Positions 19,673 through 51,804 of a DNA stretch of 64,000 nt are shown one piece after another. The stretch is from Ignavibacteriota bacterium. Its GTDB lineage: Bacteria; Bacteroidota; Ignavibacteria; UBA10030. The stretch lies in assembly GCA_963701295.1 (NCBI GenBank), contig OY969585.1, forward strand, positions 64,001 through 128,000, in the 5' to 3' direction. The stretch's first letter is position 1. Each line of letters begins with the position of its first letter. A program made the translations under genes and the position numbers. The notes below the pieces were generated by a model. The model did no database searches and was not told the origin of the DNA. It worked only from the letters and a program-made list of their open reading frames with translations.

Positions 19673-20761
19673 TCAATGAAGAGCGAGGATGCTTCCTTTT
19701 TTCACTTGAACCGTTCCTCTTATTGGAATCCAGAAATCAGCGACGACCGGAAAGTGATCTGAAACTTTAAGAAGCGGCCGGCGAGCGTGATCAGGAACAA
19801 CATCATTCATACAAAAAAGGTAATCTAATCTCATCGTGGGTAATTCTGAACGAAATGTATAATCTCCCCAAAAATGATTCGCCATGTATGCATCGGTTGC
19901 CATGCATTGAATCTTACGCATAGGTTTTGAAGAAGGTGGCGCATTCAGGTCGCCGCCAAAAATAATCGGACCGTGAAGGCCGCGCAAATATGCGGTAAAA
20001 GTGTCGACCTCCTGCATTTGCATTGCAAGGAGATATTTTCCCCACCGCAAGTTTTCTTCAATAGTATGATTCTTCGGCCTGCCTGCGATAAACCTGATCG
20101 AGACTACATGAACATACGTTCCATCCACATTGAGAAGTGCGTGGACAAAAGAACGATGTGGATGGTGAGGAAGATCGTTGATATCGTTACTCCCCGACAA
20201 AGATGCCTCACGACTCGGAAGTTCAATTTCTTTAAAATCAATAACAGGATACAGCGAGAGAATGGCCGTGCTGTTTTGGTGGCCCATATACAGCTGCATC
20301 GGCGCAATCTTTCGTTTGACAAGAGAACAAAGACTATCTGTCAGGTCGTTTTCAGAAAGAAGAGTAACATCTGCACCAAGGGAAATAATACCATCCATTA
20401 CTTCGTTGACGCCATGGGTGTAGTACTGGACATTCAGTGCAGCAACAGTGATCTTCTTAACCGAACCAGCTGGCGGCTGGTTCCGTGGAATAAGGAATGA
20501 AAGAGAGAAATCACCAAAAGCAGCTATGTAAATGGAAGCAATAGTCAACAATGATAAGGCGATTTTTCCTTTCCCCAATAAAAATAATAAAACGACAGGT
20601 GCTACAGCGAGAGCACCAATCCACAATGCTGGAAGATAGTCTAATCCGTACAAAGCATCTTTGCTGCTGAAGGCATCGAGGTGATCGAGTGTAGAGATAA
20701 TCATAAGTATTATAATGAGTGCTGCTAGAACCCATCCCACTACCAAGAAACTGTGTTTCAT
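19673..20761 (-). CDS. Membrane-anchored endonuclease/exonuclease/phosphatase (EEP) family protein
   Basis: Three N-terminal TM segments; ALNV, LSE, GGDLNAPP, RLDYLF, SDHFPV. Confidence 0.87.
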   Translation of the reverse strand: MKHSFLVVGWVLAALIIILMIISTLDHLDAFSSKDALYGLDYLPALWIGALAVAPVVLLFLLGKGKIALSLLTIASIYIAAFGDFSLSFLIPRNQPPAGSVKKITVAALNVQYYTHGVNEVMDGIISLGADVTLLSENDLTDSLCSLVKRKIAPMQLYMGHQNSTAILSLYPVIDFKEIELPSREASLSGSNDINDLPHHPHRSFVHALLNVDGTYVHVVSIRFIAGRPKNHTIEENLRWGKYLLAMQMQEVDTFTAYLRGLHGPIIFGGDLNAPPSSKPMRKIQCMATDAYMANHFWGDYTFRSELPTMRLDYLFCMNDVVPDHARRPLLKVSDHFPVVADFWIPIRGTVQVKKGSILALH

Positions 20762-20777: not shown

Positions 20778-22334
20778 TTAACGAGCTATCGCAAATTCAA
20801 TTTTCTTACGATAAGCGGTTTCAAATAATTGCTTCTTTCGATTCGCGCCCCACAATTCCAAATCCGGACAGACTTTTGACGTATGGAAAATCCAGACGCG
20901 CAGTTTTCCCTTTATTTTACGGACTTTCAATCGTTGGATATGTGAAGCATGCGAACGATCAAGACCATCAGCAATACGTAAAAGAGCTGCTAACTTTGCA
21001 ACCATTCTTCGATCTTCGATTGAGAGAAGGTTATATCCCTCATGCTTCATCTTGGGATGGCTCTTACGATGGTATCGTGCAATATTTGCTATAATCTCTT
21101 TCTCGTTTTCCGTATAACCGAGCAACTCTGCGTTTCTGATCAGATAATAGGAATGACGGTGATGTTGTGCATGCGAGACAAATAATCCTACTTCATGGAG
21201 AATCGCCGCCGCTTCTAGATATTCATATGCCTGTTCATTGAGCTTGTGGAGATATTTGGTTTGATTGAATAACTGTAGTGCCAGGTCAGTAACATGGTGC
21301 GAATGGTTTTTTTCATAATGATAATTCTCGGCTAAATGAAGAACACTGCTCCGCCGAAGATTATGGAGATAAACAGACAGCTTCTTCGTGTGCATTTTTT
21401 CGATACTGTCAAGAAGAATCCCTTCACGCAGGGAGTATTCCGATACGGTTACTTTTTTAATTCCCAAGACAAGAAATATTTGTTCAAGTATAATAGCTCC
21501 TGCAGGAAGAATATCGGCGCGTTCAGGATCAATCCCTTCGATTTCCTTCCTCTCCGTTAGTGTCGGAAAGGATAGAATATTTTTAACAGTCTCAAGTAAC
21601 TCTGTTCGTGAAAATGATACATTGTTCAGGGGAAGCTCCGTAGCTTCAGAACGATTTGCTCGTATGATATTTGCCAGAGTATTGATAGTACCAGAAGTTC
21701 CAACACAAATCCCGAATTGCTGTTTTTTTACTTCGCGAACGATCGGGACCAGAGATCCGCGTACGAATTTTCTGCATTCATCAATTGTTTTCTTGCTAAG
21801 CATACCTGATTTAAAAAACCGATCTGTTAACCGAACTGCCCCAAGTTTTAAACTATTGCTAAAGTGGATGGACCGTTTCTCCCCTATGAGAAATTCGGTG
21901 CTGCCACCGCCAATATCGATAAGTAATATGTTTTTTCGAAATACCGGCAGTGCCTGCAACACGCCCAAATAGATCAACCGAGCTTCTTCAGATCCGGAAA
22001 TAATTTCCATCCGAATTCCTGTTTCCATCTTCACGCGGCGGAGAAATTCCGGTTTATTTGTTGCCTCACGAACAGCACTGGTAGCAACCGCCCGAACATC
22101 TGCATGAAATGCATCCGCGACAGTGCGAAACCGTTTCAAGACGGCAATTCCCCGGTTCATGACAGCCTCGGTAAGATATTTCATGTCCGTCGAACCGGAG
22201 CCCAAGCGGACAACCTCTTTTTCTTTTCCAAGAATTTTAAATCGTCCAGTCACAGTATTGATTTCGGCTGCAACGAGATGGAAAGAATTTGTTCCGATAT
22301 CAATTGCGGCGAAATTTTTCTTCTGGTTTTTCAT
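20778..22334 (-). CDS. ppx: Ppx/GppA exopolyphosphatase with C-terminal HD domain
   Basis: AAIDIGTNSFHL, ATSAVREA, EEARLIY, DIGGGSTE, LREG, LRIADGLDRSH; start ATG 22334 or 22346. Confidence 0.93.
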   Translation of the reverse strand: MKNQKKNFAAIDIGTNSFHLVAAEINTVTGRFKILGKEKEVVRLGSGSTDMKYLTEAVMNRGIAVLKRFRTVADAFHADVRAVATSAVREATNKPEFLRRVKMETGIRMEIISGSEEARLIYLGVLQALPVFRKNILLIDIGGGSTEFLIGEKRSIHFSNSLKLGAVRLTDRFFKSGMLSKKTIDECRKFVRGSLVPIVREVKKQQFGICVGTSGTINTLANIIRANRSEATELPLNNVSFSRTELLETVKNILSFPTLTERKEIEGIDPERADILPAGAIILEQIFLVLGIKKVTVSEYSLREGILLDSIEKMHTKKLSVYLHNLRRSSVLHLAENYHYEKNHSHHVTDLALQLFNQTKYLHKLNEQAYEYLEAAAILHEVGLFVSHAQHHRHSYYLIRNAELLGYTENEKEIIANIARYHRKSHPKMKHEGYNLLSIEDRRMVAKLAALLRIADGLDRSHASHIQRLKVRKIKGKLRVWIFHTSKVCPDLELWGANRKKQLFETAYRKKIEFAIAR

Positions 22335-23062
22335 GATCCAGGACACTTAATATCCCCTGTTTTAATTCCCTGTTAATTTCTTCAAACGAGCGTGATGCAT
22401 CAACAACCCGGAATTTGAATTCTTTGGACATCTTGTGAAATTCAAGAAGAATACGTTTCTGGTACTCCATAAAGCTGTCGTAAAAATCATCTCCGAGATG
22501 CAGATCCATACCTGATTCCCAGTAATCCATTCCCTCGCCCGAATCTTCCTCCCAGTAACGTTTATTCAATGTCTGACTATTGATCACTCGTGGTATCAAA
22601 TCGTCAATTTGCACATGCATATAAAATATTGCATCAGGGTACTAGCGCAAAACCAAAGATTTTTCGAATCCATTGCGGGTCTGCACCACGGACCATCGAT
22701 CGAGCGAATGCAGTATAGATGTAACGGTCAGCAAGAACAATAAATCCTGCTTTCAACGCCGGGATTACTTCATGCTCAAGACGATCGGCAAAATCCGCAG
22801 CGTATAATAAACTAAACGTGTTGACGTTAAGAGTGTGACCTGACTTTGCTTCATCAATTGCATCTCCCATTAATGGCGAACGGGTCCATCCAGTTGTGGT
22901 TACTCCATGACCTTTGACTTCAAGCCATTTCTTCAATGATTCTATTTGGGTTGACCGCCCTACACCATCGGTGCCTTCAATAACAATGAGTTTTCCTTTC
23001 ATTTCATGAACGTCAATATATGGCAGTCCTGCATCATAAAACGCATGTGTTTTACGCGACAT
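22300..23062 (-). pseudogene. Thymidylate-kinase-like protein, second subunit (PPK3-like candidate); split by +1 frameshift at 22637-22639
   Basis: ORFs 22634..23062 and 22300..22620 join as ...GFALVP-DAIFYMHVQ if one C of GTA CCC TGA is skipped; P-loop GTDGVGRST; paralogous to 23052..23765. Confidence 0.8.
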
Positions 23063-23765
23063 ATATGTTCTCCTTTTTTTCCAGGAAAGGTGTGGGCTGA
23101 CACTCTTTCAACCTCTCTTCAACGATCCCGCGAATCATTGTCTGTTGTTTTTGAATTGGGAGAGTAGCATCGATGACCGTCAACCCAAATTCTGCTGCGA
23201 TCCTGTCATATTCTTCAAGTATTTTTGATTGAAACAGCCGAAAACTTTCCTTCGGATCTTCGCTGAGACCCAGATCCATTCCGGCTTCATGAAATTTTAA
23301 TTCCACCCTGCCGGTTAATATGCGTTTGAGGGATATATCGATTGGTACTTTAAAGTAAAATCCGATATCTGGCTTGACGGCAAATCCGTACAGATTGCGC
23401 ACCCATTCCGGATGAACGCCGCGCACAACATCGCGAGCAAAAGCCGTATAGATATACCGATCTGCACAGACAATCATTCCTGCTTTCATCGGAGGTATGA
23501 TCAGGTGCATCAAGCGGTCGGCAAAGTCCGTCGCATGGAGAATAGAAAATGTTGTCGGTGTGAGGAGATTTTTCTTTTTCCCGTGTTTAATCGTTTCTTT
23601 TACTAATGCCGATGAGTTCCATTCCGTAAAAAGGACTCGGTACTTTGAATTCAAAAGCCATTTGTGCAATAGTTGCAATTGCGTCGACTTACCGGATCCA
23701 TCGATCCCTTCGACAATAATCAGACGGCCTGGCAATTGGTGTTGCTGTTCAAAAATTCGGGACAT
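23052..23765 (-). CDS. Thymidylate-kinase-like P-loop kinase, first subunit (PPK3-like candidate)
   Basis: VEGIDGSGKSTQ, ADRY..TAFARD, EAGMDLGL. Confidence 0.85.
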   Translation of the reverse strand: MSRIFEQQHQLPGRLIIVEGIDGSGKSTQLQLLHKWLLNSKYRVLFTEWNSSALVKETIKHGKKKNLLTPTTFSILHATDFADRLMHLIIPPMKAGMIVCADRYIYTAFARDVVRGVHPEWVRNLYGFAVKPDIGFYFKVPIDISLKRILTGRVELKFHEAGMDLGLSEDPKESFRLFQSKILEEYDRIAAEFGLTVIDATLPIQKQQTMIRGIVEERLKECQPTPFLEKKENIYVA

Positions 23766-23780
23766 TAATTATTCTTTCTG

Positions 23781-24278
23781 TTATGCCATTAATCGTAACT
23801 GTTTTGGTGTAAGGTGCCAGAGCAATACTCCATCCCGGCGCGATGGGATCATCGTCACCTCGATGCAGCAAAGAGAGCCTTTCTTGAATTCGATGATTGA
23901 CGATTTTTTCCCAAGTAATGCAGATGCAAAATAAGAGAGATCCGGCTCATGTCCCACAATCATTATACTATTCAGCTTTTTAAATTTTACCATATAGGCG
24001 AGAAGATTATTTAATGAACTTCCCGGAGCAAGTTCATTACATATTTGAAGTTTTGACTCCACGTTTAATGCTTTTGCTACAATCTCTGCAGTGTCTACAG
24101 CACGCACTAATGGACTTGTAAGAATAATGTCAACATAATCGACGATACGTATAATTCCCTTTGCACCTTTTAGCATCTTCTCAATCCCCTCTTCTGTAAG
24201 CGGACGATCGTCACGGGGGAATAGTTTGACACCGCGTGGTGCCGCAATTGCATGACGAAGAATATATACCAGCATCAA
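23781..24278 (-). CDS. sixA: Phosphohistidine phosphatase SixA
   Basis: LRHAIA, DRPLTEEG, TSPLVRA, VGHEPD. Confidence 0.9.
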   Translation of the reverse strand: MMLVYILRHAIAAPRGVKLFPRDDRPLTEEGIEKMLKGAKGIIRIVDYVDIILTSPLVRAVDTAEIVAKALNVESKLQICNELAPGSSLNNLLAYMVKFKKLNSIMIVGHEPDLSYFASALLGKKSSIIEFKKGSLCCIEVTMIPSRRDGVLLWHLTPKQLRLMA

Positions 24279-24373
24279 TCATCCTTGGCAAATGGTTATT
24301 GGATCAAGTCCACAAATACGGTTTGTTGTATTTCTATTCGATTATAAAATAAGAGAACATTCTCTTGCTTTCG

Positions 24374-24411
24374 GCTAATTTTCTGTTAACAAAATATTAT
24401 CAAAATGTAAC
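24374..24411 (-). promoter_or_regulatory. Pho-box-like array upstream of sixA-kinase-ppx operon
   Basis: Minus GTTAC ATTTTG ATAAT ATTTTG TTAAC AGAAAA TTAGC, exact 11-bp period; TATAAT at 24346-24341. Confidence 0.72.
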
Positions 24412-24556
24412 ATTCACGATAACGCGCAGCGTGGTCAGGAATGAACTGACAAGATGGACAGGAGTAGTTATAGATAATGCAACCGCTCAGCTTAGCATAG
24501 ATAATAGGCAAGCGGTATGTGGGTATATCGGCAAAAAAACCTTTAAAAAAAATGCA

Positions 24557-25483
24557 TCACGAAAAAGCCATAGAACTTTCCGTTGAGGTAGGAACTGGAT
24601 CCAGAGAATCGACACGGCGCAACTTATTGCGCTGGCCAATCTCGCTCGGATACACACGCTTGATACCGTCGCCAAGTGCATGTTCGATATCACGAATATT
24701 TTGAACAAGACGAATAAGACCGCCTATTTCCACCGAAGCAGCTTGATCACTTCCCCACATTGCTCGATCAAGTGTGATATGTCGCTCAATAAATGTTGCA
24801 CCCAGTGCAACAGCCGCCCATGTAGGTGATAAACCTGTTTCATGGCCTGAATAACCGATAGGATTGTTCGGATATTTTTCATGTAGTGTATGAATCATCC
24901 GAAGATTAATTTCATGGGGAGGACAAGGATATGTTGATGTCGTATGGGCGATTAAAAGATTTTCGAGTCCCAGACGATGGAAGACTTTATCAATCTCATT
25001 CATTGTTGACATACCGGTAGAGATGATCAACGGCTTGCCTGTAGATTTCATCTTACGAAGAAGTTCAACATCTGTGAGCGAGGCAGAAGGTGCTTTATAA
25101 CATGGAACGGTATATTGTTCCATAAAATCGACGGAGTCTTCATCCCAGCATGATGCGAACCAGGCGATTCCGCGCGCACGGCAGTACTGATCGATCTCGT
25201 CATATTGTTCCTTCCCGAATTCCATCCTATGGCGGTAGTTGATATATGTCATGCGCCCCCAAGGTGTATCGCGCTCGACATTCCATTGATCTAATGGAAC
25301 ACATTTTACAGGAGTTCGTTTTTGAAATTTGACCGCATCACATCCTGCAAGGAATGCAGCATCGATGAGCTTCTTCGCTAATTCGAGCGACCCATTGTGG
25401 TTGATGCCGATTTCAGCGATGACATACACCGGCTGATGAGTTCCGATGAATTTATCTCCAATTCTCATAACATTGGAATTCAT
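24557..25483 (-). CDS. neuB: NeuB-family PEP-dependent ulosonic acid synthase, short form without SAF domain
   Basis: IAEIGINHNG, VKFQKR, ISTGMS, GYSGHE, IERHITLDRAMWGSDQAAS; 308 aa. Confidence 0.9.
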   Translation of the reverse strand: MNSNVMRIGDKFIGTHQPVYVIAEIGINHNGSLELAKKLIDAAFLAGCDAVKFQKRTPVKCVPLDQWNVERDTPWGRMTYINYRHRMEFGKEQYDEIDQYCRARGIAWFASCWDEDSVDFMEQYTVPCYKAPSASLTDVELLRKMKSTGKPLIISTGMSTMNEIDKVFHRLGLENLLIAHTTSTYPCPPHEINLRMIHTLHEKYPNNPIGYSGHETGLSPTWAAVALGATFIERHITLDRAMWGSDQAASVEIGGLIRLVQNIRDIEHALGDGIKRVYPSEIGQRNKLRRVDSLDPVPTSTESSMAFS

Positions 25484-26106
25484 ACTTTCTCCTCTGAAAG
25501 ATTCAGCAATTGAATCATCTGTTTCACCGTTGGGTTTTCTGCGGAGCGAAGATCAAGAATCCAATCTGAAAACTCTCGAAAGGCACCTTGGCCTCCATTT
25601 GCTCTGCATACATAATGTGCGAAGAAGCGTACAGAAGGAATCGCATCGCCGGGAACGGCAGTGAGACTCATCTCATACAGTTCAGACATAACATCGGCAT
25701 CATTCACATCATCTCCGATGTATGCAATAGCATCCAGTGGAATTTTATGATGATTTGAAAGAGTTAGTATTCGCTCAAGTTTATCTTTCACACCGAGATA
25801 TACATGCGTAATGCACAGTTTATCAGCACGCTGTTGCACGCTCCGTGATACCTCTCCCGAAATGATTCCTGTCTCAATTCCTGCATTTCGCAATCGAGCC
25901 ACTCCCATACCGTCACGGATAGAAAATCGTTTCATTACCTCACCCTGATCGGAATAGTAAACGCCGCCATCTGTCAACACACCATCACAATCGCTTAATA
26001 ACAGCTGTATGCGATTTGCACGTCTTCTTTGCACACTTCCATGTAACGGTAAAGCAACGTATGTTGTTCTTTTTTCCATGAATTTCTTCACTACCAGATT
26101 GTCCAT
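25480..26106 (-). CDS. kdsC: KdsC/YrbI-family HAD phosphatase (Kdo-8-P/Kdn-9-P phosphatase-like)
   Basis: LSDCDGVLTDG, RDGMG, YIGDDVND, GGQGAFRE; start 26106 or 26079. Confidence 0.88.
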   Translation of the reverse strand: MDNLVVKKFMEKRTTYVALPLHGSVQRRRANRIQLLLSDCDGVLTDGGVYYSDQGEVMKRFSIRDGMGVARLRNAGIETGIISGEVSRSVQQRADKLCITHVYLGVKDKLERILTLSNHHKIPLDAIAYIGDDVNDADVMSELYEMSLTAVPGDAIPSVRFFAHYVCRANGGQGAFREFSDWILDLRSAENPTVKQMIQLLNLSEEKV

Positions 26107-26909
26107 CCGCCATCTACGACTAAATTTGCACCTGTCATATACTGGGATGCGTCGCTCGCAAGAAAAACAATTGCACCTCTATAATCATTTGGATGTGCCA
26201 TACGCTGCAAAGGTGTTTTCGCGGAATATTTTTCGATAAAAAATTCTTCCTGCCCATTTTCAACTCCACCTGGTGAAAGGGCATTCACTCGAATGCCTTT
26301 GCCTCCCCAATATGCAGCCAAGTATTTTGTCAAAGCAAGTACTGCACCTTTCGTTGTAGGATATGCGGGCGATTTGAACATCATTCGTGTGCCATCGGAG
26401 CGAACATAGAGCGACTGGTCCGGTGCAACCATTCCATAGGTTGATGCAATATTGATAATATTTCCGCCGCCATTTTCAACCATGAGCGAACCAAATATTT
26501 TGCAGCATAAAAAAAGCCCGGTTACATTAACTTCCAAAGTTTGTTTCCATATAGGGAGCGGAAAGAATTCAAAGCTTGAATAATCCACTGTGCCATCGCG
26601 CTGTTCGACTTTATCATTGATCGCAGCATTGTTGACCAGAATATTGATCCTGCCAAATTGTTTCAGCAGCATTTCGCGAACGCCACACAATGATCCTTCA
26701 TCGGTAATATCCATCGCACAACCAACAGCTATGATATGGTATTCCAGGGAAAGATCTCTGGCAAATGCTTCGCATCCCTCCTGATCCACATCAGTCAAAA
26801 CGATATGCGCACCGGCTTGAGCAAGCGCATCACAATGCTGTCTGCCAAGCAGGCCTAATGCGCCTGTTACCAATGCCACTTTATCTTCCAATGAAAAGAG
26901 TGAATTCAT
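26091..26909 (-). CDS. SDR-family oxidoreductase
   Basis: TGALGLLG, LVNNAA, NIASTYG, YPTTK, VNALSPGG, VDGG. Confidence 0.92.
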   Translation of the reverse strand: MNSLFSLEDKVALVTGALGLLGRQHCDALAQAGAHIVLTDVDQEGCEAFARDLSLEYHIIAVGCAMDITDEGSLCGVREMLLKQFGRINILVNNAAINDKVEQRDGTVDYSSFEFFPLPIWKQTLEVNVTGLFLCCKIFGSLMVENGGGNIINIASTYGMVAPDQSLYVRSDGTRMMFKSPAYPTTKGAVLALTKYLAAYWGGKGIRVNALSPGGVENGQEEFFIEKYSAKTPLQRMAHPNDYRGAIVFLASDASQYMTGANLVVDGGWTIW

Positions 26910-28255
26910 TTTTTGTCACCGAGTACTATTTTTGGTTTAGTATGAAAGTTATTGGTCTTCCGAAAAACAGGTTCTACCACATCACCACGAAGAGATTTTA
27001 GCACCCTGTTTTCTTCTACTGCTCGTTTTGCAATTTTAAGTACTTCATTATACACTTCCAGGGTATATTCAATATCTTCATCGGTGTGAGAGTAAGAGAT
27101 GTTATGGAATCCGCTCCATAAAATGCCTCTTTTGAAGAACTCCTGTTGGATAAGCGATTTCAATGCTAGCGGAGTATTGACGGATGGATCAAATGTAAGC
27201 ATTGTTCGGCAGTCAAATCCTTGGCAACTTATAAAATCAACACCCGCTTCATTCAGAATTGTTTCAAGACCGTTGCGCAACTTTTTACCTTGTGCTGCGA
27301 GATATTGGGGAACAAGGTGAGCTAGCATTTCGAGAAGAGTTGCTTTTGCTGCTGCAAGGGAAAGAGCCTCGCCGCCAAATGTCGTAAAGAAGAACACATC
27401 CTTTTCAAGCAATTGCATTACATCGGCGCGCCCAGTCAGAACCGAAAGCGGCATGCCGTTGGCAATTGCCTTAGAAAAAACGGCTAGATCTGCTCTTACA
27501 CCGAAGTATTCCTGAGCACCGCCAAGTGCTAAGCGAAACCCTGTCCACATCTCATCAAAAATTAATAACGTCCCTTTTTGTTCGCAAATATCCTTTAATT
27601 GATGAAGAAAATTTTCTTTTGGGTTTTCAAACATAACGGGCTCGAGAATTACGCATGCGGTATCGTTATCGATCGAATCAATGACCGAGCCGATGTCATT
27701 GTAATTGAATGTGTGCGTGAGTTTTGCTATCTCCTTCGGAATTCCTCTGTTGCGATTTGTTATACTAATGAACCAATCATGCCAGCCATGATATCCGCAA
27801 CAGAGAATTTTTCTCTTCCCTGTAAAAGCACGTGCCAATCGAATTGCGGCACTTGCGACGTCGGCGCCGGTTTTACTGAAACGCACCATTTCTGCATTTG
27901 GCACAAGTGAGCAGATAAACTCTGCAACCTCTACCTCCAACGGATGCATCATGGAAAATGTTATTCCGCTCTTCAGTTGCTCAATGATTGCTTCATCGAC
28001 AGCAGGGTAACAATATCCGAGTGAGAGCGGACCAATACCCATATTATAGTCGATGAACTCATTTCCATCTACATCCCAAACATGTGAACCCTTGCCGCGC
28101 AGGAGATATTTGGGAGCGACACCTTTTATATATTGTCCCGGACCCTTTGCGAGCGTTTGTGTCTGCGAAGGAATAAGCCGTACAGCGCGTTTATACAATT
28201 TATTCGATTGAGTAATATCTGGATATTTTTCGTTGTTTTGCACTTTGTTTGCCAT
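26906..28255 (-). CDS. Class III PLP aminotransferase (glutamate-1-semialdehyde aminomutase-like)
   Basis: WDVDGNEFID, RFSKTG, YHGWHD, LIFDEMWTGFR, FSKAIANG, TTFGGE. Confidence 0.9.
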   Translation of the reverse strand: MANKVQNNEKYPDITQSNKLYKRAVRLIPSQTQTLAKGPGQYIKGVAPKYLLRGKGSHVWDVDGNEFIDYNMGIGPLSLGYCYPAVDEAIIEQLKSGITFSMMHPLEVEVAEFICSLVPNAEMVRFSKTGADVASAAIRLARAFTGKRKILCCGYHGWHDWFISITNRNRGIPKEIAKLTHTFNYNDIGSVIDSIDNDTACVILEPVMFENPKENFLHQLKDICEQKGTLLIFDEMWTGFRLALGGAQEYFGVRADLAVFSKAIANGMPLSVLTGRADVMQLLEKDVFFFTTFGGEALSLAAAKATLLEMLAHLVPQYLAAQGKKLRNGLETILNEAGVDFISCQGFDCRTMLTFDPSVNTPLALKSLIQQEFFKRGILWSGFHNISYSHTDEDIEYTLEVYNEVLKIAKRAVEENRVLKSLRGDVVEPVFRKTNNFHTKPKIVLGDKK

Positions 28256-28315
28256 GCCAATCCTTTTTCAACAAATTGATTGTATAAAGAGTGAAGTCAA
28301 TTGATGCTTGAATAC

Positions 28316-29236
28316 TCATTGATGTTTCCGATTCATCGACGTAAGTTTGGCAAGAATTTGCAGAGAAAGTTGTTCACCGGAAAATTCTTCTTGTTCGAGC
28401 ACATCCGGCAGCAAGCCGGGTGTAAACCATCGATCCTCCAGTGCAATCGGCAGTACTTGTGCCATTGTCTGATATCTAACAAGGATCTCACTAAGAATAC
28501 TAAACAAGCCTCCGGTTAGAAAATGATCTTCAACTGTCACGAGCAACTGCGTTTCTCGAGCAGCTCTTATGATTGCGGACTCATCGATTGGCTGAAGACT
28601 GCGAAGATTGATAAGACGAACAGACACGCCCGACTTTTCGAGTTGCTCCCGAGCAATAAATGCTTGTTCCAATAAAAAACCATATGTCAATATTGCTACA
28701 TCGAAGCCATCGGTAATCGTCTCGGACACTCCAAATGCAAACGGTACAAAATGCTTGATCACTAATGGGCGAGCATTAAAACGGACATAGCAGGGATTTT
28801 TGCTTTGGACCACATGACTCAGTCCGTCGACAAGTTCGTCAGCATCAGCGGGACAGAATATCTGCATAGATGGAATCGAACGCATCAGTGCGATATCTTC
28901 AATCGCTTGATGAGTCGGACCATTGCCATCAGAAAGAAATCCTGGAACCGCCCCTATTAATTTTACAGGTAATTTTGGGATTCCAACATCTGTTCGGATA
29001 AATTCAAATGCGCGCATGGTAAGAAACGTTGCCAAGGCATGAACTATCGGAATTCTGCCGCGCAGTGCAAGACCTGCCGCCGCTCCGACCATCGTTTGTT
29101 CTGCAATGCCAAAATCCATAAACCGCTTCCCGAGCAACTGAGGAAGAGATCGAATGGCTGCGCGATTCTCAGCCGTAAGGATCATTAAATTGGAATTTTG
29201 TGCGCACAAATGTGCAAGCTTTTCTTCGTAGGTCAT
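28316..29236 (-). CDS. Transketolase-like C-terminal (pyrimidine-binding) subunit
   Basis: DFGIAEQTMVG, GPTHQAIED, VEDHFLTGGL. Confidence 0.88.
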   Translation of the reverse strand: MTYEEKLAHLCAQNSNLMILTAENRAAIRSLPQLLGKRFMDFGIAEQTMVGAAAGLALRGRIPIVHALATFLTMRAFEFIRTDVGIPKLPVKLIGAVPGFLSDGNGPTHQAIEDIALMRSIPSMQIFCPADADELVDGLSHVVQSKNPCYVRFNARPLVIKHFVPFAFGVSETITDGFDVAILTYGFLLEQAFIAREQLEKSGVSVRLINLRSLQPIDESAIIRAARETQLLVTVEDHFLTGGLFSILSEILVRYQTMAQVLPIALEDRWFTPGLLPDVLEQEEFSGEQLSLQILAKLTSMNRKHQ

Positions 29237-29237
29237 C

Positions 29238-30095
29238 TTATCGAACCATAAGAATTTCAGAGGTGAGCACTGTAGGAATTGAGCTATGTAATTCTTGCAG
29301 AAGCATCTCTACTTCGTATTTCGAAAAGTTGGCGAACCATCGATCTGCGCGTTGTTCAATGCTGGGTAATCCTTTTCCGCGCACAGTGTTTGCAATAATC
29401 ACATTCGGTTTCCCGTGTTGAAACGGAACGTGGCAGAAAACATTTTCCATTTCATTGAAGTCGTGACCATCAATCCGTTTCCAGTTCCAGCCAAATGCCT
29501 CAAATTTTGCTCCAAGCGGTTCGAGTGGAATAAGTTCCTCTGTCCGGGTATTCGCTTGAAACTCGTTCCGATCCACGATAACGACAAGATTATCAAGTTT
29601 ATGAGCTGCCGCAGAGAGGCAGGCTTCCCAGATTGATCCTTCATTCAATTCTCCATCACCAAGAAGTACGAAAACACGATTGCGCCCGCCTTGCATCTTA
29701 ATATCATATGCAACACCGATCGCAACTGCGAATAAATGTCCCAATGAACCGGAATGAAATTCAACTGCCGGAATTGATCGATTCGGATGCCAATAGATTG
29801 AATCGAATATTTTCAAATGATTTTCTAAACGTTTCTTTGGGATGAAGTTTAATTCAGCAAGTGTTCCATACAACGCTGGAACATCATGACCCTTGGAAAG
29901 AAAAAAATAATCACGATCAGGATCATGAATCCGATCCGGGGTAATATCTAATACATCGGAATAGAGATAGACAATAAGGTCAGTACATGAAAGTGATGCA
30001 CCAATGAAACACCCGCCGCCAGTTGCCATCCGGATAATATGTTCCCGGACATGAACCGCACGGTTTTTCAGCACTTGGTGTTGGTCTTCGTTCAT
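29238..30095 (-). CDS. Transketolase-like N-terminal (ThDP-binding) subunit
   Basis: DRDYFFLSKGH, GSLGH, GDGELNEGSIWEA...N, DGHD, TVRGKG. Confidence 0.88.
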   Translation of the reverse strand: MNEDQHQVLKNRAVHVREHIIRMATGGGCFIGASLSCTDLIVYLYSDVLDITPDRIHDPDRDYFFLSKGHDVPALYGTLAELNFIPKKRLENHLKIFDSIYWHPNRSIPAVEFHSGSLGHLFAVAIGVAYDIKMQGGRNRVFVLLGDGELNEGSIWEACLSAAAHKLDNLVVIVDRNEFQANTRTEELIPLEPLGAKFEAFGWNWKRIDGHDFNEMENVFCHVPFQHGKPNVIIANTVRGKGLPSIEQRADRWFANFSKYEVEMLLQELHSSIPTVLTSEILMVR

Positions 30096-30096
30096 T

Positions 30097-30909
30097 TTAA
30101 ACGGTTTCTAATAATATTCTTGTTTCTTTCGAGGTCACTGTTTTCAATTCATTTAAATGATGGCGATACCAGTTGACGCCGGCATATTTTGCATTAAGAA
30201 GAGGCAGAATTGGCTCCTGCTTTAGCAATTCTATGATATCATAAAGTGAAAAGATCGGGTTATCCGATGTATACAGATGATCATATACTTTTTTAATGAA
30301 GATATAGTCCTCAGGATAATCGATCGTCCAACGATGAGACATCGAAAAATCTTTATCTGTTTCCCACCGTACATTTCCGATTCGGAATCGTTCAGGATGT
30401 TCCCAGATAAATGGTGTGGTATGCTCGCGTTCCAACGGCCGCGTGGCTTCTTTCCATGCAATTTCAAGAATATGGAATGGCATCACTTCGACATCGTTTC
30501 CGTCCGGATATGTTGCCGGATGAAGATTGCTAACGAAATCATACTGGCCAGTATGATCTTCATAGAACCTTACTACTTTGTCAATGATACGCGGATCTAT
30601 CAAAGGACAATCTGAAGGAATTTTTATAACAACATCGGCCTGTTCATGGAGAGCGGCCTGATAGTGCCGATCTAACAGGTCGGTAGGATGACCACTAAAG
30701 CAGGAAAGATTGAACTTCTGGCAGAGATCGCGAATTGCATCATCTTCCGGATTTGTCGTTGTAGCAACCAGGAGATCGCAATCAACTTTTGCTGCGGTTA
30801 CCCGTTGAATCATACGCAGAAGCAAGGGATTTCCCTTCAATGGCATCATTACTTTCCGTGGCAACCGCGAAGAACCAAGTCTCGCCTGGATAATAATGAG
30901 TTTCTTCAA
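30097..30909 (-). CDS. spsF: SpsF-like cytidylyltransferase (CMP-ulosonate synthetase family)
   Basis: IIQARLGSSRLPRKV, SDCPLIDP, REHTTP, WTIDYPED. Confidence 0.85.
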   Translation of the reverse strand: MKKLIIIQARLGSSRLPRKVMMPLKGNPLLLRMIQRVTAAKVDCDLLVATTTNPEDDAIRDLCQKFNLSCFSGHPTDLLDRHYQAALHEQADVVIKIPSDCPLIDPRIIDKVVRFYEDHTGQYDFVSNLHPATYPDGNDVEVMPFHILEIAWKEATRPLEREHTTPFIWEHPERFRIGNVRWETDKDFSMSHRWTIDYPEDYIFIKKVYDHLYTSDNPIFSLYDIIELLKQEPILPLLNAKYAGVNWYRHHLNELKTVTSKETRILLETV

Positions 30910-31904
30910 GACGCTAACTCCAGAGATAATTCAGGAACATTTATCTCTTCTTCCTCCAGAAGCCGACAACACACTCGTGAAATATTTTTTGCTGCCGAGG
31001 CATGCTGCAGTGGTAACAACCTGCGCAGCATCTCAATGTCAAAATACGAGTACACTTCTTTTCCCAGAGCAATGCCCACATATACAACGCTAGAATACTG
31101 TGTGATCAACACATCGCAGTTTGCGATCATTTCTTCAGTTTTCCCGTCTGCAATCACCAAAGCGCCGGGTGCATATGTTTGAATTTCTTTGGTCGCGCGT
31201 ACAATATTTTCATTGGGATGGAGTTTAAAGATCAATTGTCTATCGCTGGCAAACTCAAACACCTGTCGTATAAACTTCTTTCTATTTTCGATCTTGAATG
31301 TTTCGCGTGAATCCGAAGTGCATACAAGGATGTATCCATGAAATGGAAATGTGTTGTCATAATACTTTTTGCAATTATCAAAGTTCGGAATTCCTGTCAC
31401 AATGATTTTTCCCGGCTTTACGCCTTTCCGGATAAACAAATCACGATATCCATCGCTCGCAACACAAAACACATCGTAGAGATCGCTCAACCCGTTTGCG
31501 GAACTGCTGGCAATCCAATGGGGCAGGAAAGGAAACCGTTGAACCATACGGAACATAAAATTCTCAGGATCGGTCATTCCTTCTTGCACAAGAATAACTT
31601 TTCCATTAAAAATATTTCTTGGCACAATCAAATCGGTCGTAATCATTGTTAAATCATAATCTGCTGCTTTACCGCCGTAGTCTTCCTCTAGATGGTGATC
31701 ATGGATGTACACCTTTATCCGTTCGACCCAGAAACGTCCGGGAGTGGTGAAGTCCAACCAGCCCAATTTCTGAACAACACGTAATACTCCATCGCAATAC
31801 TGGGGGGAAAAAAAGTGATCGCATTCGGGAAGTTCATTTGCAATCTGGTGCAGTTGAGTAATTTGATTCAATGTTCCTCCGATATGCAGAATCTTTCTTC
31901 TCAT
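30906..31904 (-). CDS. Putative GT-B-fold transferase (candidate ulosonic-acid transferase)
   Basis: VTGIPNFD, FKLHPNE and DVLITQYSSV motifs resemble TagF/KpsS/sialyltransferase-type C-domains. Confidence 0.55.
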   Translation of the reverse strand: MRRKILHIGGTLNQITQLHQIANELPECDHFFSPQYCDGVLRVVQKLGWLDFTTPGRFWVERIKVYIHDHHLEEDYGGKAADYDLTMITTDLIVPRNIFNGKVILVQEGMTDPENFMFRMVQRFPFLPHWIASSSANGLSDLYDVFCVASDGYRDLFIRKGVKPGKIIVTGIPNFDNCKKYYDNTFPFHGYILVCTSDSRETFKIENRKKFIRQVFEFASDRQLIFKLHPNENIVRATKEIQTYAPGALVIADGKTEEMIANCDVLITQYSSVVYVGIALGKEVYSYFDIEMLRRLLPLQHASAAKNISRVCCRLLEEEEINVPELSLELAS

Positions 31905-32890
31905 AGACTCTCCTTTATAGTCTTATAAGAAAGTGATGTACGTTTCCAAATCGATCCTACTCCTTGACCCAAGAGGACGAGATAACCGATTGTGATACAG
32001 AAGATGGACACCAAGCGTTTCACCAAAACAAATGCAGCTATCTGAACGGCAAATGCGCGAATATGAAAAGATGTAAAGAGAGCGAAATACCCGAGATCTT
32101 TTACCACTATCCCTCCGGGTAGAAAGAATACACCCAGTCGGACAACAGAAAGAACTGCTTCGATGAGGATAGCATGGATAAAAGTAATATGAAATCCTGA
32201 TGATTGAGCAACCAGCATTGTTTCCCAGACATCCATCGTCCACAGGAAAAGATAGAAAAGCGCTGGATAGAGGATGCTCCATGCGTTCCTTTTACCTAAT
32301 GCAGCGAAGCATTCGTCGGCCTTTTTGAAAGAAGGAAGTGCACGCTTTAATCGGTCTTTAAACGATTGGATATTTATACCGTGGAGTAATTCCCATGCTC
32401 TACAGGCGAGTGTACCACGCATAAGGTTCCGAACGATAATGCCAAGGCTGAAGCTTACAAGGATGAGTACACTAATTGCGATGAACAACGTTCCATTTTG
32501 AACATAGGAAGTCAATAATTGCTGTTCCGTAACAAAGAATCCAAGTATACAAGCTGTGCAGATAAAGATGAGTTGTGTGATTCCCAATAGCCAATGACGA
32601 GTAATCAAACTACCGAGTACTTCAATAGGCGGAACATGAAAACGGCGCTTAAGAATGTACAGCTTGATCGGATCTGTCATAGCAAAACCGCCGGGGATAG
32701 AGAGCAGCACAGATTCGGCGCTCAACTGGGCACCAAACAGAGATTTTACTCCGATCTTCGATATAGGGAATAGCATGGACTTCCAAGCGATTGTATCCAA
32801 TAACATGCCTATATAAAAAGGAAGCGGTAACACGAGCAGCATCCAATTATATTGAATTATAGAGAAATTGAATTGAGAGAGAGTGCTCAA
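31901..32890 (-). CDS. Lysylphosphatidylglycerol-synthase TM/flippase-like (UPF0104) membrane protein
   Basis: About 7-8 TM segments; PGG...DPIK and FFLPGG motifs; TTG start after GAAGGAAG. Confidence 0.72.
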   Translation of the reverse strand: MSTLSQFNFSIIQYNWMLLVLPLPFYIGMLLDTIAWKSMLFPISKIGVKSLFGAQLSAESVLLSIPGGFAMTDPIKLYILKRRFHVPPIEVLGSLITRHWLLGITQLIFICTACILGFFVTEQQLLTSYVQNGTLFIAISVLILVSFSLGIIVRNLMRGTLACRAWELLHGINIQSFKDRLKRALPSFKKADECFAALGKRNAWSILYPALFYLFLWTMDVWETMLVAQSSGFHITFIHAILIEAVLSVVRLGVFFLPGGIVVKDLGYFALFTSFHIRAFAVQIAAFVLVKRLVSIFCITIGYLVLLGQGVGSIWKRTSLSYKTIKESL

Positions 32891-32927
32891 CAGCTGCTTC
32901 CTTCTGAAGGTTCACTTTTTCAGTTGA

Positions 32928-32981
32928 AAGATAATTATTCTATATTATCCAATGATTAGGAATGCATTATGAAGATGCAAA
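32928..32981 (-). promoter_or_regulatory. Pho-box-like array plus -10-like hexamer heading the ulosonic-acid operon
   Basis: Minus TTTGC(32981) ATAAT(32970) CTAAT(32959) ATAAT(32948); TATCTT begins exactly 15 nt after last repeat (32933), same geometry as the olsF promoter. Confidence 0.62.
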
Positions 32982-33809
32982 GTTAATATGAAATTGCAGC
33001 CTGCAATATTTATCGACTTGCATGGATGAGCAATGATTTATACTGTCCAATACATTGTTCGTATTTTTCTTTCGTATATCTAATGAGAATAGATGTTGGT
33101 TGAATGAGTAGAAGACGCTTCGTTATATTGATTGTCACGGCTTGTTCCAATGCTGCACAATGCCAGAGCGTTCAGCAGCAGGACTCGGTTTCGACTAAAT
33201 CTCTTTTTCAGCGTTCCTTGTTCCGACGCCAGGGAGTTTCTTGACTGCATCAAACTTCGCCTTCATGAAGCGACGCATCCTGATGAATCCTCATTTATAT
33301 CAGTAGGGATTGTCGCGGGAACGAATGTGGCTCGCGACATTGAAGAAATATCAAATCTTTTCTCAACCGCTCTTTTTTTGTTGTCCTCTGGTTTTGGATT
33401 TACCATGGAATTTTAATCGAATACGTATAAGCATACATCACTTATCACGGCATAGTGAAGTCGTAGTCTACCTGCATTCCTTAATGCAATCAATGCTTGG
33501 AAACTTATTATACTTATGCAAGTATTTTACCAATGGAGTGGACAGGTTTGTATAAAGGGAAATCTGACGTGTAAGCCTTGATGGACATCGATAATGATTG
33601 AGAGGCGGGTTTGTTCGCCATCGCTTCATCATATATGTCTTTTCGATAGATAGATCAGCACCGACGAGTATCGATGACAACTACATCTGCGCCATAGGCG
33701 GTTGCACCTCTGGCGCAAAAGAACATAGATGGCATTATAGATTGCATGATACCTCGAGAGTTTTTTTCTCTTAACTTATTCCTTTTTAAAATAGTTAAGT
33801 GACCCTGAA

Positions 33810-34254
33810 TCATACTGCCACATCTGTACCACGTCCAAAGGGTTTCCTCGCGATATTAGGAAAGAAGCCGGCAATGCCGCAGAGTATGGACAGAACAATG
33901 ACGGCGAACGGCCAAACCCAATTATTGGCGTTCCACCGTGCATCACCTGGAGACGAAGGATCATACAGAACGGAGACTATCTTTCCCGGCCGCAATTTTG
34001 CCCTCTCTAAACCACTCATGCCTTTTGTACTTGGAAGAGCCTCCTTGATTCGGAACGTCTGACCTTCAACAGTGTACTGAATGGTGAAATTTGATCCGTC
34101 TCTTGCTACGACTTGCCCCTGAGTTTCGGACGCTGATGAAGTAAAAATCAAGTAGTCCGACAAAAGGCAAACCCCATAAGGCAATCCAATGGCTGACAAA
34201 ACGATTAAGAATAAAATTCTTGGCTTTTGTGGATATGGTGGCATGTTCATTTGA
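33810..34254 (-). CDS. DUF3592-like two-TM membrane protein
   Basis: TM - ETQGQVV...IQYTVEGQ...VSVLYDPSSP - TM architecture; start uncertain. Confidence 0.65.
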
Positions 34255-36939: not shown

Positions 36940-37977
36940 ATGAAAATGAAATTAACGAAGATAATTCTGAGCCTGCTCGTTGCAGTTTCGCTGGGAAGTG
37001 CAGTGCAGGCACAATTAAAACTTAATGGCGCAGGTGCAACGTTTCCCTATGTCATTTATTCCAAATGGTTCGATGTGTACAGCAAAGATAACGGTGTTCA
37101 GTTCAATTACCAGTCGATAGGAAGCGGAGGCGGAATAAAACAAACGATCGAAGGAACAGTCGATTTCGGGGCAACAGATGGACCGATGTCGAACGATCAA
37201 CTCAAAGAAGCAAAAGAAAAACAGGGAACAGATGTTTTACACATCCCGACCGTCATGGGAGCGGTTGTCGTGACGTATAACCTTCCGGAAGGCGGAAAAG
37301 ATCTGCATCTTTCACCGGATGTACTGGCGCAAATATACCTTGGCCAGATCACAAAGTGGAACGATGGACAAATTGCAAAAATTAATTCCGGAAAAAATTT
37401 GCCGGATAAATCGATTATCGTCGTTCATCGATCGGATGGAAGCGGCACGACAAACATCTTTACTGATTATCTTACAAAAGTCAGCAAAACATGGTCCGTG
37501 AATATTGGCAAAGGAACTTCCGTGAACTGGCCGGTCGGCCTCGGTGGGAAAGGAAACGAAGGCGTTGCCGGCCTTGTGAAGCAATCGGATGGCTCCATCG
37601 GGTACGTCGAGCTTGCGTATGCCGTAAAGAACAACCTCCCGTATGCAGTTCTCCAGAATAAAGCCGGTAAATTTGTAGATGCAAGTTTTGAATCTGTTTC
37701 CGCAGCAGCCGCAGGTGCCCTCGACAACATGCCGGAAGATTTGCGCGTTTCAATTACAAACGCAGATGGAAAAGAATCTTATCCAATCTCCGGATTTACA
37801 TGGCTCTTGGTTTATAAAAACATGAAAGATAAATCCAAAGCACAGGAAATCGTAAAATTCTTGAAGTGGGCGATGAACGATGGGCAATCCTATGCAAAAG
37901 ATTTGTACTATGCTCCCCTGCCTAAAGAAGTAGTGGCACTCTGTGAAAAGAAAATTGAAAGCATTCAAACAAAGTGA
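36940..37977 (+). CDS. pstS: Phosphate ABC transporter binding protein (E. coli-type)
   Basis: GAGATFP, YQSIGSGGG, VDFGATD, HRSDGSGTT, GKGNEGV, YPISGFTW. Confidence 0.97.
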   Translation: MKMKLTKIILSLLVAVSLGSAVQAQLKLNGAGATFPYVIYSKWFDVYSKDNGVQFNYQSIGSGGGIKQTIEGTVDFGATDGPMSNDQLKEAKEKQGTDVLHIPTVMGAVVVTYNLPEGGKDLHLSPDVLAQIYLGQITKWNDGQIAKINSGKNLPDKSIIVVHRSDGSGTTNIFTDYLTKVSKTWSVNIGKGTSVNWPVGLGGKGNEGVAGLVKQSDGSIGYVELAYAVKNNLPYAVLQNKAGKFVDASFESVSAAAAGALDNMPEDLRVSITNADGKESYPISGFTWLLVYKNMKDKSKAQEIVKFLKWAMNDGQSYAKDLYYAPLPKEVVALCEKKIESIQTK

Positions 37978-38002
37978 TTTGAATAATTACTTGAATATAA
38001 TC

Positions 38003-38032
38003 AGTAGCCGGACAACTTCTTGTCCGGCTACT
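38003..38032 (+). other. Perfect 13-bp hairpin after pstS (stabiliser/partial terminator)
   Basis: AGTAGCCGGACAA-CTTC-TTGTCCGGCTACT, no long U-run. Confidence 0.7.
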
Positions 38033-38054
38033 CAATTTCCTTATTGATATCATT

Positions 38055-39023: not shown

Positions 39024-39027
39024 GAGC

Positions 39028-51722: not shown

Positions 51723-51804
51723 GAACAGAAAAAGAAAATAAATAGTGAAGAGAGGTTTTGGCTTATAATCATCGAAAATACTTCCTCCTTCATATTATAA
51801 CACC

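Follow-up and report, generated by a model that had tools for sequence, protein, structure and literature searches.

The TkN-TkC gene pair and its active-site residues

Within a 64,000-nucleotide (nt) stretch of DNA from an Ignavibacteriota bacterium (GenBank assembly GCA_963701295.1, contig OY969585.1, positions 64,001 to 128,000; hereafter the window), two adjacent minus-strand genes encode the N- and C-subunits of an atypical split transketolase. We label these genes TkN and TkC:

29238..30095, minus strand: TkN, 285 amino acids (aa), the thiamine diphosphate (ThDP)/PP-domain subunit; PF00456 at 90.4 bits against a cut-off of 22; N chain of 6yak matched at E = 2e-51
28316..29236, minus strand: TkC, 306 aa, Pyr and C domains; PF02779 at 99.6 bits and PF02780 at 70 bits; 6yaj matched at E = 1.2e-46

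All three Pfam matches exceed their gathering cut-offs, indicating that the three-domain PP/Pyr/C fold is present. The stop codon of TkN and the start codon of TkC meet as TAA-G-ATG. An original prediction, made by eye from the DNA sequence, had quoted the motifs CFIGASLS, SKGH, GDGELNEG, GKG...RWF, MTYEE, AENRAA, GIAEQ, GAVPG, DGNGPTHQ, and YVRFNA, all of which were found in the two open reading frames (ORFs). It had proposed that residues required for sugar-phosphate chemistry were systematically replaced. The key residues are C29, F30, H70, H103, D147, N177, R252-W253-F254, and the C-terminal R285 in TkN, and T21-A-E23-N24-R25...R29, E46 (the cofactor Glu), H66, F79, V97, N105, H109, R152, and A155 in TkC. 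These were assigned using HMMER against 6yak and 6yaj, MAFFT against the canonical transketolase (Tkt) of the same genome, and hmmalign of TkC relatives. The canonical Tkt, a 663-aa protein encoded elsewhere in the genome, keeps all of the His, Asp, and Arg residues in question. Numbers for this Tkt were computed from the alignments; those for Escherichia coli are the customary ones:

First His: H28 in the genome's own Tkt, H26 in E. coli; F30 in TkN
Second His: H263 in own Tkt, H261 in E. coli; F254 in TkN
Asp: D467 in own Tkt, D469 in E. coli; N105 in TkC
Phosphate-site His: H459 in own Tkt, H461 in E. coli; V97 in TkC
Phosphate-site Arg: R518 in own Tkt, R520 in E. coli; A155 in TkC

As predicted, both catalytic His residues are replaced by Phe in the alignments to 6yak and to the genome's own Tkt, and the equivalent of D469 is Asn in the alignments to 6yaj and own Tkt and by hmmalign. 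In E. coli, the H26/H261 pair binds the donor C3-OH and the acceptor carbonyl and deprotonates the donor C3-OH, and D469 reads the acceptor C2-OH. The ThDP-binding motifs are intact: H70 (SKGH), D147...N177 (GDGE...N), and E46 (GIAEQ) are kept, as are H103 (WHPN) and H109 (GPTHQ). In canonical enzymes, the equivalents of H70, H103, and H109 line the pocket that receives the hydroxymethyl end of the C2 unit.

Of the four phosphate-site residues claimed to be absent, the His (V97) and the second Arg (A155) are indeed lost, but this was not borne out for the first Arg and the Ser. The end of TkN, ...SEILMVR, followed by the start of TkC, MTYEEKL..., is collinear and gap-free with SEAMATRDASGKVL... 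of the canonical enzyme, and the spacing of 21 residues from R285 to T21 likewise separates R355 from S376 in own Tkt. From this collinearity, R285 appears to be the equivalent of the first phosphate-site Arg, such that the gene is cut right after this residue. The MTYEE at the start of TkC had been taken for loss of this Arg, which is instead the last residue of TkN. T21 would be a conservative replacement of the phosphate-site Ser. Two of the four phosphate-site residues (E. coli R358, S385, H461, and R520) are therefore kept or conservatively replaced (R285 and T21), and two are lost (V97 and A155).

Scores against the more specific models were low. The best NCBI transketolase equivalog, NF004559, has a cut-off of 488 bits and scored TkN at only 210.2 bits and TkC at 172.6. 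We also considered 1-deoxy-D-xylulose-5-phosphate synthase (DXS) as the identity of the pair and rejected it: both subunits fall short of the 465.95-bit cut-off of the DXS equivalog TIGR00204 (152.6 bits for TkC, 35.7 for TkN), and DXS alignments read GADGQTHQ where TkC reads DGNGPTHQ.

The substitutions are conserved far beyond this genome. In sequences cut from 96 fetched loci of several phyla (n = 92 for TkN and n = 84 for TkC), C29, F30, H70, H103, R252, W253, and F254 were invariant in TkN (92/92), and position 285 was Arg in 91/92. In TkC, T21, E23, N24, R25, R29, E46, H66, F79, N105, H109, and R152 were invariant (84/84). The Phe/Phe/Asn pattern of the original prediction thus holds in every relative sampled (F30 and F254, 92/92; N105, 84/84). 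The ThDP/Mg residues D147, N177, and E46 were likewise invariant, and V97 was found in 80/84 sequences; position 155 was Ala in 47/84, with Arg outside its five commonest residues. Across phyla, 92 columns in TkN and 66 in TkC are near-invariant. Among 120 sequences listed (the protein itself and 119 relatives, 64 to 82% identical to TkN), 119 matched GGCF[ILV]GASLS and 116 matched RWF, the remainder having no match to the expression. The Phe/Phe pattern is, by these alignments, the mark of a distinct clade of the transketolase family that spans at least six phyla. TkN is 62 to 80% identical across phyla and, together with NeuB, is the best-conserved protein of its gene cluster in most loci; such strong conservation is a poor fit to a decaying gene. 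TkN and TkC were full-length ORFs everywhere among the relatives.

In a search for longer proteins (120 listed), 46 were fusions of a cytidylyltransferase to TkN (P0122 to P0166 and P0169), all with Phe at the first position and 45 with WF at the second; P0169 was unaligned there. On a tree of 166 TkN domains, these fusions need three to four changes. P0167, P0168, and P0173 also bear the clade motif. Of these, P0167 and P0168 are TkN-TkC fusions with divergent linkers, that of P0168 without the Arg, and are uninformative on the junction; P0173 (TkN-TkC-aminotransferase in one ORF) has internal deletions and lies on a 2-kb contig, and was set aside as an artifact. The other 71 long proteins listed, at most 46% identical, have as fusion partner a methyltransferase, kinase, epimerase, or DegT domain or their own C half. 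His stands at the first position in all of these and, in most, at or beside the second wherever the alignment extends that far.

The operon and its relatives in other genomes

TkN and TkC lie in a nine-gene minus-strand operon whose junctions are overlaps of 4 to 16 nt or gaps of 1 nt, except for a 60-nt gap between TkC and the aminotransferase gene. The other genes, in order of transcription, are as follows:

31901..32890, minus strand: first gene; LPG_synthase_TM (MprF-type) membrane protein, putative lipid flippase; PF03706 at 55 bits against 33.4; found in 37/80 loci
30906..31904, minus strand: putative transferase for the activated sugar acid, GT-B-like and weakly TagF-like; weak matches to Glyphos_transf (22.9 bits), TIGR04396 (34.7 bits), and NF046086 (23.9 bits), the last two below their cut-offs
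30097..30909, minus strand: CTP_transf_3 cytidylyltransferase; PF02348 at 92.3 bits; 6oew at E = 8.7e-38; KdsB matches weakly; ends 1 nt upstream of TkN
26906..28255, minus strand: class III aminotransferase, glutamate-1-semialdehyde (GSA)-aminomutase-like, directly 3' of TkC; PF00202 at 158.8 bits; NF004856 at 391 bits against a cut-off of 486
26091..26909, minus strand: classical SDR (short-chain dehydrogenase/reductase) oxidoreductase; adh_short_C2 at 163.7 bits
25480..26106, minus strand: KdsC/YrbI-family ulosonate-phosphate phosphatase; TIGR01670 at 128.1 bits against 106.95; KDN-9-P phosphatase model at 150.3 against 180
24557..25483, minus strand: last gene; NeuB-family phosphoenolpyruvate (PEP)-condensing synthase without a C-terminal SAF domain; PF03102 at 254.1 bits; TIGR03569 matches positions 1 to 277 of 329

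The closest solved relatives of the aminotransferase are GSA aminomutases and C-6' sugar aminotransferases, and those of the SDR are galactitol dehydrogenase (2wdz) and gluconate 5-dehydrogenase (1vl8). Together, a NeuB-family synthase, a YrbI-family phosphatase, and a CTP_transf_3 enzyme make up the gene set of a phosphorylated-type CMP-ulosonic acid pathway, as for 2-keto-3-deoxynononic acid (Kdn)-9-P or N-acetylneuraminic acid (Neu5Ac)-9-P. The sugar-specific equivalogs all scored below their cut-offs (NeuB_NnaB, 249 against 400; KDN-9-P phosphatase, 150 against 180; KdsB models, at most 65 against at least 193). Separate, better-matching KdsB and KdsC proteins are encoded elsewhere in the genome, which, with the canonical Tkt, suggests that the operon enzymes are dedicated paralogs. 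The canonical Tkt, the low equivalog scores, the clade-wide substitutions, and the sugar-acid operon are in line with the original prediction that the pair is not a sugar-phosphate transketolase, a conclusion that is well supported by these comparisons.

A scan for promoters and terminators from 23700 to 33900 gave 21 promoter-like and 8 terminator-like sites, against a shuffle background of 23.9 and 8.2. Inspection by eye, without a motif search, showed no Pho box in front of either the operon or the gene at 35731. Complex prediction for the cytidylyltransferase with TkN and TkC returned a score of 0.00, which amounts to no answer and is used as evidence neither way. No RNA runs containing the operon were listed; in one metagenome DNA run, the share of sampled words present was 0.14.

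The operon is flanked on one side by pstS, pstC, pstA, and pstB (36940-40709, plus strand) and on the other by genes for an EEP-family phosphoesterase (19673-20761), Ppx (20778-22346), and a SixA-type phosphohistidine phosphatase (23781-24278). Ppx and SixA genes flank the cassette in four relatives as well (L017, L027, L032, and L034), arranged differently. In another locus (L105), genes for a two-domain acyltransferase, OlsF-like, and for a metallophosphoesterase, PlcP-like, come directly after the cassette; both labels are analogies. Operons are known in which a glycosyltransferase and an MprF-like flippase make amino-glycolipids; given these and the phosphate and lipid neighbors, an amino sugar-acid head group of a membrane lipid is a reasonable end product to infer for the operon. 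Two further features of the window were observed. Between 22300 and 23062 (minus strand), a second dTMP-kinase-like gene occupies two ORFs in different frames (22634-23062, 142 aa; 22300-22620, 106 aa), whose halves match a single ORF of ∼250 aa in two of the three closest relatives with the gene, and a frameshift, a pseudogene, or a sequencing error may be the reason. From 50000 to 56000, the G+C content is 0.37, compared to ∼0.43 elsewhere, with a strongly negative GC skew, and this region may be a foreign island.

We surveyed the cassette in one genome per species, using the best 80 of 138 loci with TkN relatives, many of them short contigs. The gene order transferase-cytidylyltransferase-TkN-TkC-aminotransferase-SDR-KdsC-NeuB was collinear in most of the best 80 loci, from Ignavibacteriota, Bacteroidota (Chitinophagales), Myxococcota (Minicystis, Sorangium, and Byssovorax), Kapaibacteria, relatives of Thermochlorobacter, Acidobacteriota, Gemmatimonadota, and others. 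Carriers include the cultured Minicystis rosea DSM 24000 and Sorangium strains. Detection by tblastn with the window proteins was most frequent for TkC (73 of the 80 loci) and the cytidylyltransferase (71), followed by the transferase (66), the aminotransferase (60), the SDR (55), NeuB (52), the phosphatase (43), and the membrane protein (37). The gene 3' of NeuB in 43/80 loci belongs to the membrane fatty-acid-hydroxylase family (PF04116); it is absent from this window, and a query with the gene from relatives found no match in this genome. In three genomes the cassette is split, with [membrane protein-transferase-cytidylyltransferase-TkN-TkC-aminotransferase] apart from [SDR-KdsC-NeuB-hydroxylase] (L098 to L102).

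Individual loci carried insertions or unusual contexts. An aldo/keto reductase gene is inserted between TkN and TkC in one locus (L009:10994-12121, plus strand), and a dienelactone hydrolase gene lies between TkC and the aminotransferase gene in two loci of Thermochlorobacter type (L037:13976-14668 and L041:12361-13047, plus strand). The cassette in a metagenome-assembled genome titled Synechococcus sp. UW140 (L032) groups tightly with Ignavibacteriota and Bacteroidota copies, suggesting a binning contaminant or recent transfer. A second transketolase-like cluster in one genome (G301, L107) had no NeuB context.

Presence and absence were scored in 301 genomes of the phylum, with orthologs called at E = 1e-60 or better. 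The cassette NeuB had an ortholog in 100 of these genomes and TkN a match in 43, with both in 39. Forty of the TkN matches are clade members with at least 59% identity, and three are different transketolase-like genes (39 to 42%). In four genomes, the cassette transferase-cytidylyltransferase-aminotransferase-SDR-KdsC-NeuB-hydroxylase is present with TkN and TkC cleanly missing (L104, L105, L106, and L119). On a FastTree phylogeny of concatenated aminotransferase, NeuB, cytidylyltransferase, and SDR sequences (65 rows), the four rows lacking the pair are nested among rows that have it, requiring at least three changes; one of them (L104) is 83% identical to a cassette with the pair (L113), on a branch no longer than those of its neighbors. 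TkN/TkC is an optional component, not a core step of the pathway: since these cassettes are complete without it, the SDR and the aminotransferase work without the transketolase-like enzyme.

We asked which columns conserved in at least 95% of the rows with the pair had changed in at least two independent lineages without it. There were seven such columns, spread over the aminotransferase, cytidylyltransferase, transferase, NeuB, KdsC, and hydroxylase, whereas in 84 control sets drawn from rows of the same clade with the pair the number of coincident columns averaged 2.5 and never exceeded 5, so that none reached 7. The sample consists of four cassettes and the control sets are interdependent, and this excess of parallel changes is a weak hint that cassettes with the enzyme and those lacking it make different products.

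Among small-genome relatives (family f20), 55 of 63 sampled keep only a KdsC-NeuB pair, with ∼70% identity to the cassette NeuB. Only KdsC-NeuB was found near NeuB in all five f20 loci examined (L093 to L097, in G158, G126, G206, G166, and G258), and no aminotransferase or cytidylyltransferase orthologs were found in the five f20 genomes searched, each covered except for 16 to 32 kb. A second KdsC-family match occurs elsewhere in 5/5 of these genomes, and KdsA, found in 4/4 searched, adjoins it.

Proposed role of TkN and TkC

The cofactor residues and H70, H103, and H109 are invariant and TkN is 62 to 80% identical across phyla, which argues for an active enzyme and not a relic. TkN and TkC thus appear to be halves of an active ThDP-dependent enzyme that would serve a conserved operon as an optional tailoring module. 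Its substrate, reaction direction, and place in the pathway are what we infer from residue patterns and gene context. The reading we favor, tentatively and at somewhat less than an even chance, is that TkN/TkC alters the side chain of a keto-ulosonic acid that bears no phosphate, by one C2 unit and ahead of amination.

In the pathway we propose, NeuB would condense PEP with a sugar phosphate, and the KdsC-type phosphatase would free the ulosonic acid. The SDR would then oxidize a side-chain hydroxyl of this acid, the class III aminotransferase would install an amine, the cytidylyltransferase would make the CMP-sugar, and the transferase and MprF-like membrane protein would put the sugar on a membrane acceptor. 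The transketolase-like enzyme would still form the two-carbon dihydroxyethyl-ThDP but would no longer handle open-chain sugar phosphates. It would act instead on the carbonyl that the SDR creates in the free ulosonic acid, which bears a carboxylate, and alter the side chain by one C2 unit. The anionic group of the substrate need not be gone, because R285, T21, R25, and R29 are retained; these residues are a possible anion site for the carboxylate. Two versions can be envisaged: in version (a), the terminal HOCH2-CO would be cleaved from a penultimate-keto sugar, leaving an aldehyde for the aminotransferase; in version (b), a C2 ketol from hydroxypyruvate would be added to a terminal aldehyde. 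Relatives of the SDR oxidize the penultimate hydroxyl of polyols and sugar acids, which here would create a ketose-type HOCH2-CO-CHOH end, and those of the aminotransferase act on aldehydes (GSA and 6'-oxo sugars or aminoglycosides). These similarities favor version (a), as does the aldo/keto reductase inserted in one locus (L009), which would fit removal of a glycolaldehyde by-product, whereas the loss of both His residues favors a decarboxylative donor. Side-chain remodeling is also consistent with the split cassettes, which keep TkN-TkC with the cytidylyltransferase and aminotransferase, and SDR with KdsC-NeuB, and with the cytidylyltransferase-TkN fusions in 46 protein clusters.

Several observations weigh against this proposal. 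Loss of both His residues, which in canonical enzymes bind and deprotonate the donor C3-OH, argues against version (a), and a fused transketolase in a sister cassette (described below) keeps both, so that an enzyme that cleaves side chains seems to need them. Version (b) would need an SDR-made aldehyde and a supply of hydroxypyruvate, neither of which is indicated. The aminotransferase, NeuB, cytidylyltransferase, and SDR of cassettes lacking the pair are up to 83% identical to those of cassettes with it, on branches no longer than theirs, such that the downstream enzymes would have to accept both products. Of the seven coincident changes, NeuB and KdsC, which both precede the proposed step, have one each. 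His-192 of the cytidylyltransferase, changed in three of the four cassettes lacking the pair, was considered as a specific coupling signal and dropped, as a coincidence in three lineages also turned up in 16 of the 84 control sets. An intact Phe/Phe TkN-TkC pair (L103:9560-11349, plus strand) occurs in one genome (G213) with no cassette nearby and no NeuB ortholog at E = 1e-60. This pair lies between an amidohydrolase gene and a monogalactosyldiacylglycerol (MGDG)-synthase-like gene, with an OlsF-like acyltransferase and a metallophosphoesterase nearby, and breaks 6/92 of the TkN and 4/66 of the TkC near-invariant positions, compared to a maximum of 4 in any other member.

The chief alternative is that the enzyme is a 2-oxo-acid decarboxylase outside the main line of the sugar, which we consider unlikely though well short of negligible. 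Such an enzyme might convert hydroxypyruvate to glycolaldehyde, for example removing the keto-acid co-product of the neighboring aminotransferase, which TkN/TkC always adjoins. Alternatively, it might act on a 3-deoxy-2-ulosonic acid whose carboxylate would occupy the three-His pocket, with its C3 methylene facing F30/F254 and its distal anion held by R285, T21, R25, and R29. Because no base for a C3-OH would be needed, loss of both His residues, the Asp, and part of the distal site could be tolerated, and an apolar pocket of Phe, Phe, and F79 would favor loss of CO2. Optionality, with loss leaving the other cassette enzymes almost unchanged, the aldo/keto reductase inserted in one locus, and the stand-alone pair in G213 all fit. 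However, the strictly kept R285, T21, R25, and R29 suggest a long anionic substrate rather than hydroxypyruvate, and the second form would destroy the very group activated by the CTP_transf_3 enzyme, placing it off the main path. Decarboxylation of the ulosonic acid as a main-path step was rejected, as the cytidylyltransferase would be left without a substrate. Neither the cytidylyltransferase fusions nor the excess of parallel changes in cassettes lacking the pair is explained by a decarboxylase. The fusions (46 clusters, at least three changes on the tree) lend indirect support to a carboligase on the CMP-linked sugar, the nucleotide-linked form of the original prediction, with the SDR, transketolase-like enzyme, and aminotransferase all acting after activation. 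Other sugars are as a rule modified while linked to a nucleotide, the cytidylyltransferase and TkN genes are 1 nt apart here, and the retained and new Arg residues could bind the CMP phosphate. Fusions of neighboring genes arise easily, however, and the split cassettes put the SDR with NeuB and KdsC, not with the cytidylyltransferase; the aminotransferase, moreover, is of class III and not of the DegT type usual for nucleotide sugars. We regard this order of events as improbable.

Placing TkN/TkC upstream of NeuB, as supplier of an unusual sugar phosphate for PEP condensation, is less plausible still, and we hold it to be very unlikely. In the aminoshikimate route a transketolase is likewise placed upstream; two of the four phosphate ligands are retained here together with two further Arg residues, and the parallel changes touch NeuB and KdsC as well. 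Yet making an aldose phosphate by ketose cleavage would need the lost His pair, ketol addition would yield a ketose, which NeuB-type enzymes are not known to use, and in the split cassettes TkN/TkC travels with the late genes. Least credible is that the pair is catalytically dead (a decaying duplicate or a scaffold) or an ordinary second sugar-phosphate transketolase. The loss of both His residues important for ketose turnover and the dispensability of the enzyme in some lineages would fit, but the 92 and 66 near-invariant columns across phyla, which include all cofactor residues, the full-length ORFs everywhere, the canonical enzyme already present in the genome, and scores far under the equivalog cut-offs all speak against it. 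As a more speculative and rather improbable elaboration, the pair could work in a transketolase-transaminase cascade: a C2 ketol from hydroxypyruvate would be added to an aldehyde on a non-phosphorylated ulosonic acid (or to a lipid aldehyde) and the new ketone aminated, giving a 2-amino-1,3-diol (serinol- or sphingoid-like) terminus on the higher-carbon sugar-acid head group of a phosphorus-free lipid. Natural pairs of cassettes with and without the enzyme offer a ready-made experiment for its product.

Comparison with known systems

Textbooks count the two active-site His residues of transketolase among its catalytic machinery. A Phe/Phe clade conserved at 60 to 80% identity across at least six phyla would show what ThDP ketol chemistry can do without both of them. 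The best solved match to the pair is the split transketolase of Carboxydothermus hydrogenoformans (ChyTK; 6yak and 6yaj), which shares the two-chain architecture, the domains, the ThDP residues, and the cofactor Glu. ChyTK reads GHPGGSLS, WH, THAG, GEDG, and LGR where TkN and TkC read CFIGASLS, WF, AVPG, DGNG, and FNA. The two also differ at the junction. The match to 6yaj starts at chain residue 39, which corresponds to residue 3 of TkC, so the C chain of ChyTK has upstream residues beyond the start of TkC; unlike ChyTK, TkN and TkC are cut directly after the linker Arg, which ends TkN.

Among engineered enzymes, E. coli transketolase has been varied at D469, R520, and H26, and these variants show retained or improved activity with hydroxypyruvate and a non-phosphorylated aldehyde, propanal (PMC3657141). 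The positions altered are the same as in TkN/TkC, although the variants are laboratory single to triple mutants whose natural substrate is still a sugar phosphate; no variant with both His residues changed to Phe was seen, and that paper does not mention H261. TkN/TkC carries natural substitutions at these three positions mutated by enzyme engineers, which is compatible with the original prediction of a different substrate that is not phosphorylated and of a 2-oxo acid as donor; hydroxypyruvate would be one. Another article (PMC13663882) concerns ordinary split transketolases. No published description of this cassette or of a Phe/Phe transketolase was found in the literature searched, which leaves out most subscription journals.

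A sister cassette was examined in one Acidobacteriota genome (G401):

L109:8103-15010, minus strand: NeuB (with SAF)-SDR-aldehyde dehydrogenase-cytidylyltransferase-fused transketolase-HAD phosphatase

GT4 and GT2 glycosyltransferase genes adjoin it. Like TkN/TkC, the transketolase of this cassette is without equivalents of Asp-469, His-461, and Arg-520, and His at the position of TkC residue 66 is common to both. Unlike TkN/TkC, it is a single chain, ∼30% identical to TkC, that keeps both His residues (SGHIG and YHSG), and the cassette has an aldehyde dehydrogenase in place of the aminotransferase. Some tallies of transketolase-like genes include two genomes flagged as unpublished (G352 and G327), on which none of the conclusions depends.

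The Kdn-9-phosphate route of Bacteroides thetaiotaomicron follows the same core logic of a NeuB-family synthase, a YrbI-family phosphatase, and a CTP_transf_3 enzyme, there named synthase, KDN-9-P phosphatase, and CMP-Kdn synthetase (NCBIfam NF058599). Relative to that route, the operon phosphatase scores 150 bits against the 180-bit cut-off, its NeuB is without SAF, and the operon adds an SDR, a class III aminotransferase, TkN/TkC, a transferase, and a flippase-like protein. In the formation of 8-amino-8-deoxy-Kdo (Kdo8N) by Shewanella, the alcohol oxidase KdnB and the aminotransferase KdnA act on the free ulosonic acid before CMP activation. This sequence of oxidation and then amination is the likely logic of the cassettes lacking the pair; the Kdo8N route uses an iron-dependent alcohol dehydrogenase rather than an SDR and has no ThDP enzyme.

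For the lipid end of the pathway, the relevant systems are gpgSDF of Pseudomonas aeruginosa (PMC12713373) and hexSDF of Clostridioides difficile (PMC10128005), in which a lipid glycosyltransferase and an MprF-like flippase make an amino-sugar lipid. Those operons use UDP-GlcNAc-type sugars and a deacetylase and have no NeuB, cytidylyltransferase, or ThDP enzyme. The window operon has an LPG_synthase_TM match of 55 bits, weak matches to other families for its transferase, and no deacetylase. In several genomes it lies beside genes for phosphate uptake or phosphate-sparing lipids. TkN/TkC offers a way into this widespread, unstudied operon, whose probable product is an amino sugar-acid head group of a lipid.

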